NCBI GenBank assembly: GCA_965220155.1
Contig: OZ244810.1
Location: 3,553,302-3,617,301, forward strand
Source of the DNA: Dehalococcoidia bacterium
Lineage (GTDB): Bacteria; Chloroflexota; Dehalococcoidia; SHYB01
Reading direction: 5' to 3'
DNA length: 64,000 nt
Of this stretch, positions 6,830 through 53,760 are shown piece after piece. How positions within the stretch are numbered: position 1 is the first letter of the stretch; each line of letters starts with the position of its first letter. The notes beneath the pieces are model-generated. The model did not search any database, was not told the DNA's origin, and worked only from the letters and a program-made list of their open reading frames with translations. Position numbers and translations under genes: made by a program.

Positions 6830-7963
6830 ATGGACCTCAACTTCACCGAAGAGCAGGACATGCTCCGGAGAACTGCCCGGCAGTTCCTCGAGCGGGAGTG
6901 CCCTACGAGTCTCGTCCGGGAGATGGAGGCTGATCCACGCGGGGTCCATTTCGGCCTCTGGAAGCAGTCTGCCGACCTGGGACTGATGGGCGTTGCGTTG
7001 CCCGAGCGCTACGGCGGCGGGGGCCAGAGCTTCTTGGACCTGGCGTTGGTGCTGGAGGAATTCGGGCGGGCGATGATGCCGGGGCCAGTCCTCCAGACGC
7101 TGGCCAGCTGCGGAATGTCGCTCCTCGAATTCGGCACCGACGATCAGCGCCAGCAGTTCCTGCCGGGCATCGCAAGCGGAGAGACGCTCATGGGGCTCGC
7201 GTTCATCGAGCCTGGCACCGGCTACGAGGAGACGAACGTCTCCACCTCCGTGCTATCGACCGCCGGCGATTTCACCTTAAACGGGACGAAGCTGTTCGTC
7301 CCCTATGCGGGTGTGCTGGACTACCTCCTCGTCGTTGGGAGAAGCCATGGCGACCAGCTTTCCAAGGATGGCCTGACCTTGCTCCTGGCGGATGCGCGGG
7401 GCCCCGGTATCCAAAAAGAGGAGCTGAAGGTCAGGGGTAGGGACCGGGTCCACGAGGTACGGTTTGTCGACGCCAAGGTCCCGCGAGACGGCCTGATTGG
7501 AGAAGAGGGCAACGGGTGGCCTGTCCTGGAGCGTCTCTTGGCTCTAAGTGCGGGGGCCCAGTGCGCCGAGATAGCCGGCGTCTGCGGGGCGGTGTCCGAC
7601 ATCACCACCGAATACGCCAAAAGCCGGGCCCAGTTCGGCAGGCCTATAGGGATGTTCCAAGCGATTCAGCGTCACTGTGGGGACATGCACGCGGACACCG
7701 AAGCGGTCCGCTATCTCACGTATGACGCCGCCTGGCGCTTGGGATCGGGAGTGCCCGCCGAGAAGGAAGTCGGCATGGCGAAGTCCTTCGCGAGCGATGC
7801 CGTCCGGCGAGTAATGGAAAGCGGCCATCAGGTCCACGGGGCCATCGGTCTCACCGACGAGCACGATCTTACGCTATACAACCGGCGTTCGACTGCCTCG
7901 GCCGTAAACTACGGTGACTCGACCTTCCACCGCGAGACCGTTGCGTCCAACATGGGCCTATAG
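6830..7963 (+). CDS. Acyl-CoA dehydrogenase family protein
   Basis: 377 aa. MDLNFTEEQDMLRRTARQFLE..., FIEPGTGYEE, NGTKLFVPYA, YAKSRAQFGRPIGMFQAIQ. GAGAGAGGA SD. Confidence 0.9.
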   Translation: MDLNFTEEQDMLRRTARQFLERECPTSLVREMEADPRGVHFGLWKQSADLGLMGVALPERYGGGGQSFLDLALVLEEFGRAMMPGPVLQTLASCGMSLLEFGTDDQRQQFLPGIASGETLMGLAFIEPGTGYEETNVSTSVLSTAGDFTLNGTKLFVPYAGVLDYLLVVGRSHGDQLSKDGLTLLLADARGPGIQKEELKVRGRDRVHEVRFVDAKVPRDGLIGEEGNGWPVLERLLALSAGAQCAEIAGVCGAVSDITTEYAKSRAQFGRPIGMFQAIQRHCGDMHADTEAVRYLTYDAAWRLGSGVPAEKEVGMAKSFASDAVRRVMESGHQVHGAIGLTDEHDLTLYNRRSTASAVNYGDSTFHRETVASNMGL

Positions 7964-9286: not shown

Positions 9287-10327
9287 TCAGGCTGCGCCGC
9301 CGATCCTCCTGGTAGTCGACTCACTCAGATGTCCGTTTCCCCAGAGGGAGATCACTGACGAGAATCCTCCCGCCTCGCCTCCAGCGACCAGGAGCGAGAT
9401 CCCGCCGGCGGAGGTCACGCAAGGGTGCATCTCCAGGTCGTCGCCGGGTCCGGGGGAGCCGGGCAACCGAGCAAGCCGCTTCAGTTGGGCCGTCGACACC
9501 CGGGCGCGTTCGTGGAGGTATTGCGCCGCCTGGCGCTTGCTCCAGCCCGCCTTCCTGAACAGCCTCGCGTGCTCAGGGCAAACGACGATAGCGAACTCCC
9601 CGGCGTTCCGGCCAAAGACGCTCATGCACTCCGCCACGTTTTCGAGAAATGCCTCGGGTGTGTTGCTGGTATGGTCGATCATCTGCATGGGAGAGTGGAC
9701 GGCGAAGACGGTGACGACGTTTTCTTCCAGGCCGAAGCCGCGGGTGACTTGAAGCGGCTCCCAAGGGCTGTGGTCCAAGCTCTCGGCGATGCACATGCTG
9801 TACTTGCCGCCCTGGCCCATGGTCGACTTGTCCATCACGCCCGGGCTTCCACCCGTAACGTTCATGATGATCAGCCGGATAGCGCGCCCGATGGTCGAGT
9901 TGGGCCGAAAGCCGGGCCCGAAGAGGTTCACACCCCCGTTGACCCCCAGCTCCCGCGCGATGGGCCCCCCAACGACGATGAGCTGGGCCGAGCCTCCGGT
10001 GCTGGCCAGGCTGCCGTGATAGTTGAACTGGGGCTCACACATCGCCTCCATGACGGCCACCACCACGGGCATGTACTCCGGCCGGCAACCCGCCATCACC
10101 GCATTCACCGCGACCTTTTCGGCTGTGATGACCCTGCCCCGGGTCGCGACCTCGCCGATCACATCGCCCGGCGCTTTCCCGGCCGCGGCGAGGAACTCGT
10201 GCACCCGGTCCGCCGTGGCCGGCACGACAGGGAGACCATCAGTCCAGCCCCGTTCGAAATAGTGCTCGACCGCCTCGAGGGCGTTATCGAAGCGGGTCCC
10301 CTCCGATTGGAGATCTTCCTGAGTCAT
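9287..10327 (-). CDS. Uncharacterised conserved protein, tightly coupled partner of the UGSC (seleno)protein gene
   Basis: The track ORF is 9287..10402. I place the start at ATG 10327 (MTQEDLQSEGTRFDNALEAVEHYFERGWTDGLPVVPAT...). An AGGAG SD 7 nt upstream overlaps the TAG of the preceding gene. 346 aa, no family recognised. Confidence 0.7.
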   Translation of the reverse strand: MTQEDLQSEGTRFDNALEAVEHYFERGWTDGLPVVPATADRVHEFLAAAGKAPGDVIGEVATRGRVITAEKVAVNAVMAGCRPEYMPVVVAVMEAMCEPQFNYHGSLASTGGSAQLIVVGGPIARELGVNGGVNLFGPGFRPNSTIGRAIRLIIMNVTGGSPGVMDKSTMGQGGKYSMCIAESLDHSPWEPLQVTRGFGLEENVVTVFAVHSPMQMIDHTSNTPEAFLENVAECMSVFGRNAGEFAIVVCPEHARLFRKAGWSKRQAAQYLHERARVSTAQLKRLARLPGSPGPGDDLEMHPCVTSAGGISLLVAGGEAGGFSSVISLWGNGHLSESTTRRIGGAA

Positions 10328-10337
10328 AGACGCGCTC

Positions 10338-10883
10338 CTACCGGCCGAGGAGCAGCTCGAGTACCTGAGGGACGGCCTCCTGGGCCCGCTCCTTGACCTC
10401 ATCCTTCGTGAGACTTCCCATGGGGTGCGGGACTACCGCGAAGGGGTAATCGGGGATACCTTGGATACGAGCCATGCTTTTTGCCGTTGGGATGAAGGGC
10501 TCGGTGCAGATCACCGCGGAGGGAATGCCGAGCTTCTCGAAGGTCGTTCCGTCGAGCAGACTGCTCGACGAGCAGGACCCTCAATCGCCTATCGCGGTAA
10601 CGACGACATCGCATTGAGAGGCCAGCTCCTGAATCGTCTCCGGGGGGCACGGGCGGGAGACGTCGGGCTTGGTGCGCCTCACCACAGAGGCAAACTCATA
10701 GCGGCTGGAGAGCAGCTCGTAGAGCTCGTCCAGCAGACCGCTCGCGTTCATTTTGTGATTGTCCAGAAGCCCCAGCACCTTGCCGTTGAGGGTCGTAGGA
10801 CGTTCCGCCACACTGACGTCTACCGTCAGGGCGGCGGACGTTGGGTCCAGTATTACGATCCCGGGACCGCTTGTGGTGGCCAT
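10338..10883 (-). CDS. UGSC-motif (seleno)protein; in-frame TGA (10583..10581) read as selenocysteine, codon 101 of 181
   Basis: AAAGGAGGAG-N5-ATG at 10883. ORF 10581..10964 ends ...QCDVVVTAIGD-TGA. The same frame continues GSCSSSSLLDGTTFEKLGIPSAVICTEPFIPTAKSMARIQGIPDYPFAVVPHPMGSLTKDEVKERAQEAVPQVLELLLGR to TAG 10340..10338. A SECIS-like hairpin lies just 3' of the TGA. Confidence 0.7.
10550..10570 (-). promoter_or_regulatory. SECIS-like stem-loop immediately downstream of the in-frame UGA
   Basis: mRNA: UGA GGGUCCUGCU CGUCGAGCA GUC UGCUCGACG. This is a perfect 9-bp stem with apical GUC, or 8 bp with an AGUCU loop. The stem starts 10 nt after the UGA and the apical G-U lies about 20 nt after it. 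Confidence 0.55.
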
Positions 10884-50309: not shown

Positions 50310-51067
50310 TGGCTCCTCCCGAGGTCCGGCTCATAGGAATCACCGGCCTCCCCGAGGTCCACTCCGGGGACGATCTGCCGGCCATGCTCATCGAGGCAGC
50401 CGCCAGGCAGGGGACACCCCTCGAGGATGGCGACGTTCTCGTGGTGACTCAAAAGGTAGTCTCCAAGGCCGAAGGCCGCGTGCTCAAGCTCGCGGAGATC
50501 GACGCATCGCCCTTCGCCCAATCCTTCGCCGCCAAGTGGGACAAAGAGCCGGGGCTGGTCGAAGCGGTCCTTCGGCAAAGCCGGCGTATCGTCAAGATGG
50601 ACCAAGGAGTCCTGATCACCGAGAACCTGCTGGGGCATATCTGCGCCAACGGGGGGGTCGACGCCTCCAACCTCGAGACACAGGGGACGGTAGCCCTGCT
50701 CCCGGAGGACCCCGACCGATGGTGCTCTCAGGCCAGGGCAGAGGCCCGGAAGAGGCTCGGCGTCGAGATCGCGGTCATCATGTCGGACACCTTTGGCCGA
50801 CCGTGGCGAGACGGCTGCACCAACGTTGCCATTGGGGTCTCGGGCATGGACCCTATGATCGACTACCGAGGGCAGATCGACCCCGCGGGCATGGTCCTGA
50901 AGGTCACGGTTATCGCCATTGCCGATGGGCTGGCCGCGGCCACCGAGCCGATCATGGGAAAGTTCAATCGCGTTCCGGCAACGATTGTGAGGGGCTACGA
51001 CTATCCGAAGGGGGAAGGTGGTGCGGCGGCCCTCTTGCGCGATCCCAGCAAGGACCTCTTCCGCTGA
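50309..51067 (+). CDS. cofE: Coenzyme F420-0:L-glutamate ligase
   Basis: GTG 50309 overlaps the npdG TAG by 1 nt. GDVLVVTQKVVSKAEGR, ANGGVDASN, SDTFGRPWRDGCTNVAIG. The upstream part of track ORF 50186..51067 is an out-of-frame overlap. Confidence 0.85.
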   Translation: MAPPEVRLIGITGLPEVHSGDDLPAMLIEAAARQGTPLEDGDVLVVTQKVVSKAEGRVLKLAEIDASPFAQSFAAKWDKEPGLVEAVLRQSRRIVKMDQGVLITENLLGHICANGGVDASNLETQGTVALLPEDPDRWCSQARAEARKRLGVEIAVIMSDTFGRPWRDGCTNVAIGVSGMDPMIDYRGQIDPAGMVLKVTVIAIADGLAAATEPIMGKFNRVPATIVRGYDYPKGEGGAAALLRDPSKDLFR

Positions 51068-51166
51068 CCCAAAGGCACAGCAGTGTTCAGCACCTCATCA
51101 ATCGCGATGGGAGTTGACGTAATGCCAGCCTGCTTCACATAACCGCGTGACATAAACCGTGCCCGA

Positions 51167-51494
51167 CTAGGGATTGTTCACACTAGCTGTGAGGCAAAGG
51201 CTTGCCAAAGGCGTGGCGGGGCTAAGGTGCCTGGCGGGCAGCGTCTTAGACCCCTCGCCGTTCGCTCGGGGTGACAATCAAAAGGCCTCGGAATCACTAT
51301 GGCCTTGTGAAGGCCACGGAAGGGGATGAAAACAGGGCGGCGTCCCAGGAACGGGCCGGAGGCGGGTTTCAAACCCGCCTCTACGAAACAACGGTGCGGC
51401 GGTGCCCATTTTCATAGCAATGACACGGGGGAGCGCTTTATGACACGGAGGAGCGCTTTTCGTGTAGCGCGAGCATAGTGTAAACAGGCCCTAC
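51167..51494. mobile_element. MITE-like non-autonomous element, copy A (~328 bp, imperfect TIRs, CTAG/CTAC flanks)
   Basis: Left end CTAG|GGATTGTTCACACTAGC. Right end (reverse complement) GGCCTGTTTACACTATGC|. The terminal ~80 bp and ~150 bp blocks are near-identical to copy B, with a variable middle. Internal perfect palindrome GAGGCGGGTTTCAAACCCGCCTC. No plausible ORF. Confidence 0.7.
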
Positions 51495-51536
51495 TCAAAT
51501 CGGTTGGGCAACCGCGCTCGCCCACCCCGGGGGCAC

Positions 51537-51896
51537 ATGGCGTTCTTGAAGATCGAAGTTGAGGACAACGGCAACTCCTACGCCGTCCCGATGCGGCTTT
51601 TTTCGACCCTTGGGGACACGAGCGCCGTGAGGCGGCTGAAGATGGATACTGCCAGGGGCACCGGGCAGCCTCATCTGGTGACAGGTTGGAGCAGCGAAGA
51701 TGACGGCGCCCCTGTGCCCGCTTACTGGGTTGCCGTCGAGGACTCTGGGGCGGGAATCTCATATCTCGTGTACGGCGGCGACTGGGGCCTGAGGTTCAAG
51801 CCACAGCACTCGGACCGAGAATGGGCCCTCGACGAGGCGGAGCAGTTCGGGGAACCCTACTTGCTGCTGGGGGACCCGTCGGACATCCTCGAATAG
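51537..51896 (+). CDS. Hypothetical protein (119 aa), inside the MITE-bracketed module
   Basis: MAFLKIEVEDNGNSYAVPMRLFSTLGDTSAVRRLKMD...EWALDEAEQFGEPYLLLGDPSDILE. Acidic, protein-like composition. GGGGG SD 4 nt upstream. No family recognised. Confidence 0.5.
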   Translation: MAFLKIEVEDNGNSYAVPMRLFSTLGDTSAVRRLKMDTARGTGQPHLVTGWSSEDDGAPVPAYWVAVEDSGAGISYLVYGGDWGLRFKPQHSDREWALDEAEQFGEPYLLLGDPSDILE

Positions 51897-51948
51897 AGCG
51901 GCCCGCGGCAGTGGCCCGCGGCGGCTCCAACACTCTCAAGCCACCCCC

Positions 51949-52010
51949 CCTAATTATTATGTCAACCAGTATGCCGTCTCCTGTGTCGTATCGACATAAC
52001 ATATATTAGG
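51949..52010. repeat. AT-rich imperfect inverted repeat in the leader of the efflux-pump gene
   Basis: CCTAATTATTATGTC (51949..51963) ... 29 nt ... GACATAACATATATTAGG (51993..52010). The outer CCTAAT/ATTAGG and inner TATGTC/GACATA arms pair. It is the most AT-rich patch seen in the window. Confidence 0.6.
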
Positions 52011-52236
52011 CGAACCAACCAACACCCCAAATGGAGCCCCCTTAGGGAGCCTTTATGACAACTTGTCACCCCGGTAATGTCGATCGAACGGGAGCCTGGG
52101 AAGGTTATCGGCAAGGCCCGGGATCTTCGCCGCAAGACCATTCGGCTTTGCAGCACGTGATACAGTTGCGCCACCGTACGCCTCGTACGGTCACCGACAC
52201 CGCCTAGCCCCGACACCGTCTAGCGAGGGTAATCCG

Positions 52237-53760
52237 CTGAGACAGGCTATCCATCAGAGCGCGTCCTACAAGTGGTGGGTCTATGCGGCGGTGGCGGTGG
52301 GGACGTTCTTCACGGTGGTGGACCACGGCAGCGTCAACGTGGCCCTGCCAAGGATTGAATCCCACTTCGACACGGACCTGCCCACCGTCCAGTGGGTCGT
52401 CGTGGGCTACGCCCTCGCCATCAGCGTGCTCCTCTTGCCGATGGGCCGCATGGGCGACGTCCTCAACCGTAAGAGCGTCTACCTCACGGGACTCGCACTG
52501 TTCGCCCTCGGGGCCGGGCTGGCGGGGACCTCCCAGAACGTGCCCATGCTCATCGCATTCAAGGTCTTGCAAGGGGCCGGGTCGGCCATGGTCCAGGGGA
52601 ATGGAATGGCCACCATCCTGTCCGTTTTCCCACCCAGCGAGCGGGGCAAGGCCCTGGGGCTGAACATGAGTGTCGTGGGCAGCGGCATCATCGTCGGGTC
52701 GGCGGTAGGAGGGCTGCTCGTAAGCGCTCTTGGATGGCGCTCGGTCTTCTTCGTGGCCTCCGGGGCGGGGCTAGTGGCCCTCGCCGCCTCGGCGCTCGTT
52801 CTGGACCGCCAGCGGCTCGCCCCGCAGCAGGACCAGGGACAGCGTGTCAAGTACGATTGGCTCGGCGCCGCCTTCTCCGGGGGAGCACTGCTCCTCTTCC
52901 TCGTATCCATGACCAACGGTCACAGCAGCGGATGGGGCTCCCCGCCGATCGCTCTCGGGTTGCTGGGGGCCGCCGCTCTGCTCGGAGCGTTCGTCTGGTG
53001 GGAGCTGCGTCACCCTGCACCGATGCTGGACCTGCGGTTGTTCAAGCACAAACTGCTGGCCCTTGGCGTCGCTACGGGGTGGATCTCGTTCATGGGGAAC
53101 ACATCGGTCATTTTCATGATGTCCTTCTACCTTCAGAAGGTCCTGGGGTACAGTCCCCGGGAGGCCGGACTCATCATCATACCCGGGGCCTTTGCGATGA
53201 TCGTCATCGGCCCGCTGGCCGGCCGCCTGTCCGACCGCTATGGGTGGCTGAAGTTCAACGTCGCCGGCCTGGCGATCTCGGCCACCGGCCTCTTCGTACT
53301 GTCCACCAGCCTTACCACCGACTCCAGGCTGGCATTCATCATCCCCATCTTGATCATCAACAGCTCTGGTATCGGTCTGTTCAGCTCCCCCAACAACAAC
53401 TCGATCCTCAGCGCCGTCGAGCGGTCTCGATACGGCGTCGTGACGGCCCTGACCCAGCTTGTCAGAAATTCCGCCCAGGTCACCAGCATCGCGGTGATGA
53501 CGACGCTCGTGGTGGCGACCATGGCGTCCAGGGGCTTCGAGCCCAGCCTGACGGCCGTAACGGAACCCGGTGGGGCGGCCGGGGTGACCGAGGCCTTCGT
53601 TGCCGGGTTCAAGAGAGGCTGCCTGGTACTGGGGAGCCTGCTCGTCCTCGGCATCGTCCTGTCCATCATCAAAGGCGATAAGCCGAAAGGGCCGCCCATG
53701 GAGGCCGGAGAGCCGGTCCCAGCGCGGCGACGGGAGCAGGCGGTGGGGGCTGGGGACTAG
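52237..53760 (+). CDS. DHA2 (EmrB/QacA-type, 14-TM) MFS drug-efflux transporter
   Basis: ...SYKWWVYAAVAVGTFFTVVDHGSVNVALPRI..., MGRMGDVLNRK, LQGAGSAMV. The track start GTG 52291 would cut TM1, so I propose CTG 52237 (GAGGG SD 7 nt upstream). The stop TAG lies in the CTAG flank of MITE copy B. Confidence 0.85.
   Translation: MRQAIHQSASYKWWVYAAVAVGTFFTVVDHGSVNVALPRIESHFDTDLPTVQWVVVGYALAISVLLLPMGRMGDVLNRKSVYLTGLALFALGAGLAGTSQNVPMLIAFKVLQGAGSAMVQGNGMATILSVFPPSERGKALGLNMSVVGSGIIVGSAVGGLLVSALGWRSVFFVASGAGLVALAASALVLDRQRLAPQQDQGQRVKYDWLGAAFSGGALLLFLVSMTNGHSSGWGSPPIALGLLGAAALLGAFVWWELRHPAPMLDLRLFKHKLLALGVATGWISFMGNTSVIFMMSFYLQKVLGYSPREAGLIIIPGAFAMIVIGPLAGRLSDRYGWLKFNVAGLAISATGLFVLSTSLTTDSRLAFIIPILIINSSGIGLFSSPNNNSILSAVERSRYGVVTALTQLVRNSAQVTSIAVMTTLVVATMASRGFEPSLTAVTEPGGAAGVTEAFVAGFKRGCLVLGSLLVLGIVLSIIKGDKPKGPPMEAGEPVPARRREQAVGAGD

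Follow-up and report, generated by a model that had tools for sequence, protein, structure and literature searches.

The locus raises the question of whether an in-frame UGA codon at positions 10583..10581 (minus strand) is decoded as selenocysteine (Sec) under the direction of the RNA hairpin that follows it, or whether the codon is a stop and the hairpin has another origin. The window, by which we mean the whole stretch of 64,000 nucleotides that was analysed, had been the subject of an earlier note that read the minus-strand mRNA as UGA, GGGUCCUGCU, CGUCGAGCA, GUC, UGCUCGACG and GA and likened the hairpin to bacterial SECIS (bSECIS) elements such as that of E. coli fdhF.

The gene occupies positions 10883..10338 on the minus strand, with the start codon ATG at 10883..10881, the in-frame UGA at 10583..10581 and the stop codon TAG at 10340..10338; its start matches that of the called 100-aa fragment P0001. 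Beyond the UGA the frame remains open for 80 codons, and the read-through product of 181 aa scores 162.3 bits against the NCBIfam model NF041046, "UGSC family (seleno)protein" (curated cut-off 125), and 205.5 bits against Pfam PF24696 (cut-off 25). The nearest named homologues come from Dehalococcoidia and Chloroflexi MAGs. The UGA, read as Sec101, aligns with the first cysteine of the invariant GD[C/U]GSCS motif, which is the invariant C101 of GDCGSCS in the full-length Cys-containing homologues. In the analysis of the GOS ocean metagenomes, UGSC proteins emerged as a major selenoprotein family of prokaryotes and one of the most abundant there, with 255 Sec and 21 Cys forms (PMC2398784), and the family is also found in current review lists (PMC13188914).

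Residues 48–167, around the UxxC motif, show weak similarity to PrdB of D-proline reductase (TIGR04483, E = 2.9e-4, 20 bits against a cut-off of 300) and to GrdB of glycine reductase (TIGR01917, E = 9.4e-4, 18 bits against a cut-off of 602). We rejected membership in either family, given that the scores are far under the curated cut-offs, the UGSC protein is much shorter, and a PrdA/GrdE-type partner was not found. A Cys-type homologue was modelled with AF2 (pLDDT 89.8) as a generic alpha/beta sandwich, in which the C/U-G-S-C motif sits where a strand meets the N-terminal end of a helix; such a predicted placement would be typical of redox-active CxxC motifs. In this model, the hairpin codes for the first turns of the helix that follows the motif. 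No specific relative of the model was detected in the PDB (best TM 0.45), and a PDB sequence search gave nothing meaningful.

If the UGA were a true stop, the gene would be split or a pseudogene, and the hairpin could be a terminator, an attenuator or an mRNA-stability element lying between two ORFs. Two facts speak for this: gene callers annotate two separate ORFs at every locus examined, and UGA is a normal stop codon in this genome, where it terminates 9 of the 27 long ORFs in the window and is thus not globally reassigned. Comparison with homologues, however, argues strongly for read-through. Among the homologue clusters of 92–112 aa recovered in a search with the N-terminal 100 aa, 118 out of 118 end in ...GD right before the stop, and a stop at the exact Sec residue in all of these clusters indicates a family trait and not a sequencing error or a pseudogene. 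From a homologue search with the N-terminal fragment and the contigs that encode the matches, we assembled stop-type orthologues of 11 further lineages (L113–L135), which share 41–70% protein identity with the window gene and together with it form a set of 12 sequences. The stop at the Sec position is TGA in ten of these lineages and TAG in one. In each of the 11, the conserved C-terminal half continues in frame past the stop with the pattern GD-U-GSCS[S/T/A][S/C/A]S[L/M/V][L/H/F/A]D[G/A], and mostly there is no start codon directly after the stop. In addition, the stop aligns with a cysteine of the catalytic motif, the family is a curated selenoprotein family, and no U-tract follows the stem. 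We therefore consider it extremely unlikely that the UGA is a true stop.

Figures for the hairpin itself are given below with the U of the UGA as nucleotide 1; all of its parts lie on the minus strand. The 10-nt spacer GGGUCCUGCU (10580..10571) comprises the codons Gly102, Ser103 and Cys104 and the first base of Ser105. It is followed by the 5' arm of the stem, CGUCGAGCA (10570..10562, nt 14–22), in which nt 16–22 belong to a conserved 7-bp core, by the apical loop G23-U24-C25 (10561..10559), and by the 3' arm UGCUCGACG (10558..10550, nt 26–34), after which GA comes next. The order of elements is thus exactly the one that had been described. The arms form nine perfect Watson–Crick pairs, or ten pairs if the U13–G35 wobble is included, and opening of the closing A-U pair leaves an 8-bp stem with the loop AGUCU, so that both forms given in the earlier note are borne out by the reading of the sequence. 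The apical G-U, which had been placed about 20 nt after the UGA, occupies nt 23 and 24, with a gap of 19 nt between the UGA and the loop; both nucleotides fall in the Ser108 codon AGU and are the probable contact of SelB.

Folding with RNAfold, which had been suggested as a check, gives −34.1 kcal/mol for a 76-nt context (z = −2.7, with 1 of 200 shuffles as good), and the hairpin is present in both the MFE and the centroid structures. The isolated 21-nt hairpin has a calculated energy of −13.5 kcal/mol, and the mean probability of the core pairs is 0.95. Folding also predicts a possible, optional lower stem between GACCUUCG (10545..10538) and UGAGGGUC (10583..10576), which would include the UGA. 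Across the orthologues 68% of its cells are paired, with no compensatory change, and the poor conservation and absence of covariation led us to drop it from the element. Rfam covariance models applied to positions 10300..10800 gave no SECIS match even at E ≤ 10. The SECIS models of Rfam mainly describe eukaryotic-type elements, and for this reason the null result says little.

The earlier note had also held that a perfect 9-bp stem at this place is unlikely to be incidental. Perfect stems of this length are not rare here: the window, with 64% GC, contains 14 matches (about nine distinct hairpins) as compared with 2.8 ± 2.3 in dinucleotide shuffles, and stem perfection by itself is therefore a weak argument. 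A rough estimate from the same hairpin counts puts at about 1e-3 the probability of a chance hairpin that starts no more than about 10 nt from a given UGA. It is the position and the conservation of the hairpin, and not the perfection of its stem, that carry the argument, and it is the conservation that takes the case beyond chance.

It should be noted that other perfect hairpins of at least 9 bp with loops of 3–8 nt start at window positions 411, 5098, 31059, 40374, 41418, 48574 and 53949. The motif GCAGTNTGC occurs in one further copy, at 6964, which corresponds to chance frequency. A crude scan of the window for in-frame TGA codons followed by a hairpin returned six further candidates, all of which were rejected: the one at 51414 translates to junk beside a terminator-like hairpin, and the remaining five were dismissed solely on their positions as artefacts that lie out of frame or antisense. 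The stretch from about 51067 to 52291 lacks a long ORF and contains a perfect, GC-rich hairpin, GAGGCGGGTTTGAAACCCGCCTC (51359..51381), which looks like an intrinsic terminator.

According to the published bSECIS model, a loop of 3–9 nt is carried on a stem of 4–16 bp, a G stands in the first two loop positions and is usually followed by G or U in the pattern N1 G [G|U] N N2, the distance from the UGA to the loop is 16–37 nt, and the MFE is −7.5 kcal/mol or lower (PMC13188914). The window hairpin agrees with the model in all four respects, having a loop of 3 (or 5) nt on a 9-bp stem, G23-U24 in the loop, a distance of 19 nt and an energy of −13.5 kcal/mol; the pentanucleotide A22-G23-U24-C25-U26 fits the pattern exactly. 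Its location also corresponds to that of a bacterial SECIS, immediately 3' of an in-frame Sec codon and inside the coding sequence, with the stem starting 10 nt downstream.

The closest functional comparison is with E. coli fdhF, whose minimal element consists of nt 15–31 with a bulged U17 and loop nucleotides G23 and U24 (PMC8659212). The sequence of fdhF was checked in 5,419 E. coli genomes and then folded. Both genes have a stem-loop directly 3' of the UGA within the ORF, with G23 and U24 at identical positions, so the assertion that the distance is comparable to that in fdhF is borne out to the nucleotide. The apices are nearly identical (GCA-GGUC-UGC in fdhF and GCA-GUC-UGC in the window), and U26, G27 and C28 of the 3' arm are in the same register. 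The upper stem-loop of fdhF begins about 11 nt after the UGA, and in the window the full stem begins after a spacer of 10 nt and the conserved core after one of 12 nt. The differences concern the bulge, the loop and the stability. There is no counterpart of the bulged U17 in the window hairpin, where nt 17 is a paired C and the stem is fully paired; the loop has 4 nt in fdhF and 3 (or 5) nt in the window; and the upper stem of the window is longer and fully paired, reaching −13.5 kcal/mol over its 9 bp where nt 15–31 of fdhF reach −4.2 kcal/mol. The lower stem of the window hairpin is poorly conserved, and the host protein is unrelated.

If the hairpin serves Sec decoding, it should be conserved among the stop-type orthologues, and the note had named stem covariation in TGA-containing members as a test. 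The alignment from the Sec codon onward has no indels, the hairpin keeps its register in all 12 sequences, and the 19 nt that separate the stop codon from the loop (positions 4–22) are identical in number in all orthologues. Over the 12 sequences, 88% of the cells of the 9-pair stem are paired, as opposed to 18–45% when the 3' partners are slid by 1–3 columns, and the covariation score of the stem was reached by none of 500 column shuffles. RNAalifold finds the 7-bp core, pairing columns 16–22 with columns 26–32. Compensatory changes are seen at two pairs: pair 19:29 is U-A in six sequences, A-U in three and G-C in one, and pair 20:28 is G-C in ten, C-G in one and G-U in one. The loop is G23-U24-N throughout, with G23 and U24 invariant in all 12 sequences, and no orthologue has a conserved bulge in the stem. 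The predicted covariation is therefore found, with the hairpin in register in all 11 further lineages.

The picture at individual pairs is more complex. The swap between A-U and U-A at pair 19:29 matches the residue pairs Ser107/Leu110 and Cys107/His110, and the co-variation S107C/L110H could in principle have arisen at the protein level. Lineages L113 and L114 carry the intermediate combination Ser107/His110, which produces an A-A mismatch at this pair. Orthologue hairpin energies range from −7.4 to −13.5 kcal/mol; L127 is marginal, with a core pair probability of 0.01, and folds preferentially into another structure in which the 5' arm is displaced. A TGA pattern (GGNGAYTGAGGNWSNTGYWSN + 15 N + GAYGG) gave no match on viral contigs. 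One lineage has a second TGA-type UGSC paralogue (L122:3001-3546), 58% identical in its N-terminal part, on a contig of 3,605,618 bp that also carries a member of the cluster of the window gene; the 5' arm is identical in the hairpin of this paralogue, whose stem includes a G-U wobble, and no partner gene lies nearby.

The hairpin could still be an incidental consequence of encoding, at high GC content, a peptide rich in Ser and Leu, and could lack any function at the RNA level. The abundance of perfect 9-bp hairpins, about five times commoner in the window than in shuffles (14 and 2.8), fits this explanation. Synonymous sites, however, speak against it. In the codon alignment of the 12 genes, the third-position entropy is 0.00 bits at six consecutive codons, 106–111; it averages 1.15 bits over the gene and falls to zero in just 10 of the 175 columns, and a run of six is found only at the hairpin. 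Codons 106–111 are exactly those of the core stem and loop, and third positions vary in the spacer codons 102–105 and in codon 112. Ser108 is encoded by AGT in 12 of 12 genes, although AGT is the rarest Ser codon in the genes of the window (5.4%). We also enumerated all 373,248 synonymous recodings of the peptide SSSSLLDG, weighted by codon usage: 0.07% of them combine a stem of this length with a GU loop, and for the peptides of the other orthologues the stem and GU loop are kept in 0.1–1% of the recodings each. The rarity of this combination among recodings means that the hairpin is not a by-product of the peptide.

Genes of the family that encode Cys at position 101 provide a control, and the hairpin had been expected to be lost in them. 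We used 81 Cys-type genes, mostly from Actinomycetota, obtained by a genome scan whose pattern demanded a Cys codon. On average 4.1 of the 9 in-register pairs form in these genes, no better than in the slid controls, and the stem run counted from the loop side has a mean of 2.0 pairs. A G-U loop is present in 0 of 81. Ala or Thr codons (GCN or ACN) stand at position 108 in 79 of the 81 genes, the other two have AGC, and AGT was found in none. The in-register stem is thus mostly absent from Cys-type genes. It should be noted that these controls belong to other phyla, that no Cys-type orthologue close to the lineage of the window was found, and that part of the contrast between Sec and Cys forms could be due to divergence of lineage or of amino acid sequence.

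Folding energy does not discriminate between the two types. The Cys-type genes have a mean local folding energy of −12 kcal/mol, similar to that of the Sec-type genes, which is due to their high GC content, and only the register-specific stem and loop separate Sec-type from Cys-type. This similarity, too, fits an incidental hairpin, as do three Cys-type genes (L027, L029 and L039) with a 6-bp in-register stem at nt 17–31 after the Cys codon; these stems are of the CGGCCA/UGGCCG type on a GGCC palindrome, with loops CCG or CGG, and may be due to chance or may be a relic of, or a pre-adaptation for, switching between Sec and Cys. The stem-loop segment of L027 differs from that of the TAG-type locus L130 solely in codon 108, which is ACC in the former and AGT in the latter. 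When these observations are set against the invariant third positions, the fixed AGT codon, the scarcity of equivalent recodings, the compensatory changes at two pairs and the fixed register to the Sec codon in all orthologues, the incidental origin of the hairpin is already largely refuted, and we assign it a very small probability. Selection acts on the hairpin as RNA, and it is conserved at a constant distance 3' of the Sec codon.

Another possibility is that the UGA is read through without Sec-tRNA(Sec), either by near-cognate Trp or Cys insertion or because UGA has been reassigned, and that the hairpin merely slows the ribosome. Low-level insertion of Cys or Trp at Sec UGA codons under selenium limitation is known in bacteria, and tRNA scans found no tRNA-Sec in the 64-kb window, where no selA, selB or selD gene was noticed either, all of which is compatible with this possibility. 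Reassignment disagrees, however, with the use of UGA as the terminator of one-third of the long ORFs (9/27), and the loop G-U and the spacing match those of SelB-dependent SECIS elements. Furthermore, in one orthologous lineage a tRNA-Sec(UCA) gene (L124:3654-3748, minus strand) adjoins the TGA-type UGSC gene, about 100 nt downstream of it; it was identified by ARAGORN and by Rfam RF01852 with 64.7 bits (gathering score 47). Judging from the orthologues, the present genome is probably capable of Sec decoding as well.

The loci with TAG at the Sec position are also relevant here. Three metagenome contigs with 74% GC have this codon (L130:1288-1290, L131:1259-1261 and L132:744-746), and their protein sequence is actinobacterial-like. 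They keep the in-register hairpin in the form CGGCCA-GUG-UGGCCG, in which the two variable pairs have both changed in a compensatory way; these three loci yielded no tRNA gene. The use of UAG as a Sec codon by means of tRNA-Sec(CUA), including in proteins with the UGSC motif, is documented in Geodermatophilaceae, according to the citation of Mukai et al. 2016 in PMC5330540. The UAG-decoded UGSC proteins belong to the same family and the same in-register hairpin is seen in the three contigs, the difference being that the window gene uses the canonical UGA. Retention of the hairpin with TAG at the Sec position means that it follows Sec coding and not the UGA triplet, as is expected for an element that recruits SelB. 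The occurrence of the same hairpin with UAG, in a lineage type known for decoding by tRNA-Sec(CUA), is difficult to reconcile with read-through that does not involve Sec-tRNA(Sec), and we regard the latter as highly unlikely.

Overall, the data support the interpretation that the hairpin is a functional bSECIS element inside a UGSC-family selenoprotein gene, with a probability that we put at roughly 0.93. By analogy with E. coli fdhF, SelB would bind the hairpin and Sec would actually be inserted in this organism in the following manner. With the ribosome at UGA101, the stem-loop that starts 10 nt downstream would remain folded where the mRNA enters. SelB would attach to its apical part through the C-terminal winged-helix domains, chiefly by contacts with the loop nucleotides G23 and U24, and SelB-GTP-Sec-tRNA(Sec) would thereby be tethered at the A site, so that the UGA would be decoded as Sec and not as a stop. 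The hairpin would then melt and be translated as Ser105–Gly112, yielding a 181-aa protein with the U-G-S-C redox motif.

Both the UGSC family and its SECIS-dependent decoding are already known, and the hairpin is an ordinary member of this class. The known UGSC bSECIS elements (Zhang & Gladyshev 2008, PMC2398784; NF041046) belong to the same family and share the Sec position and the location of the SECIS inside the coding sequence just 3' of the UGA; the window gene is another orthologue that differs in nothing essential. The family-specific consensus, consisting of a 7-bp core, a GUN loop and an invariant AGU Ser codon, is not spelled out in the papers cited here.

The most interesting loose end is outside the hairpin finding and concerns the conserved pairing of the UGSC gene with its neighbour. 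A conserved gene of 346 aa at 10327..9287 (minus strand) starts 10 nt after the UGSC stop codon, and the two genes are probably co-transcribed. Of 80 Cys-type loci, 79 carry a homologue of the neighbour beside UGSC, as do 7 of the 11 Sec-type lineages. The product of the neighbour is probably a functional partner of the UGSC protein; the gene is likely to be part of the same functional module as UGSC and not of the SECIS. It matches no Pfam or NCBIfam family, and its own family comprises at least 7,912 homologue clusters, none with a name beyond "hypothetical". Its AF2 model (pLDDT 85.7) has no convincing fold match in the PDB (best TM 0.28). The UGSC (seleno)protein and the 346-aa neighbour might together constitute a widespread uncharacterised two-component redox enzyme, a proposal to which we give slightly less than even odds.

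Taken together, these results leave the known picture of Sec decoding unchanged, and they matter for annotation. The gene should be annotated as one selenoprotein of 181 aa and not as two short ORFs. The consensus of a 7-bp core, a G23-U24-N loop and an obligatory AGU Ser codon could help to locate UGSC selenoproteins, and to annotate them correctly, in Chloroflexota, Methylomirabilota and other MAGs. The element also appears to have left a footprint on the protein, since the start of the helix is Ser-rich in Sec forms and Ala-rich in Cys forms, and residue 108 is Ser in the former and Ala or Thr in nearly all of the latter. Insofar as the SECIS shapes the residues at the start of this helix, a switch between Sec and Cys would need coordinated changes in the protein and the RNA.
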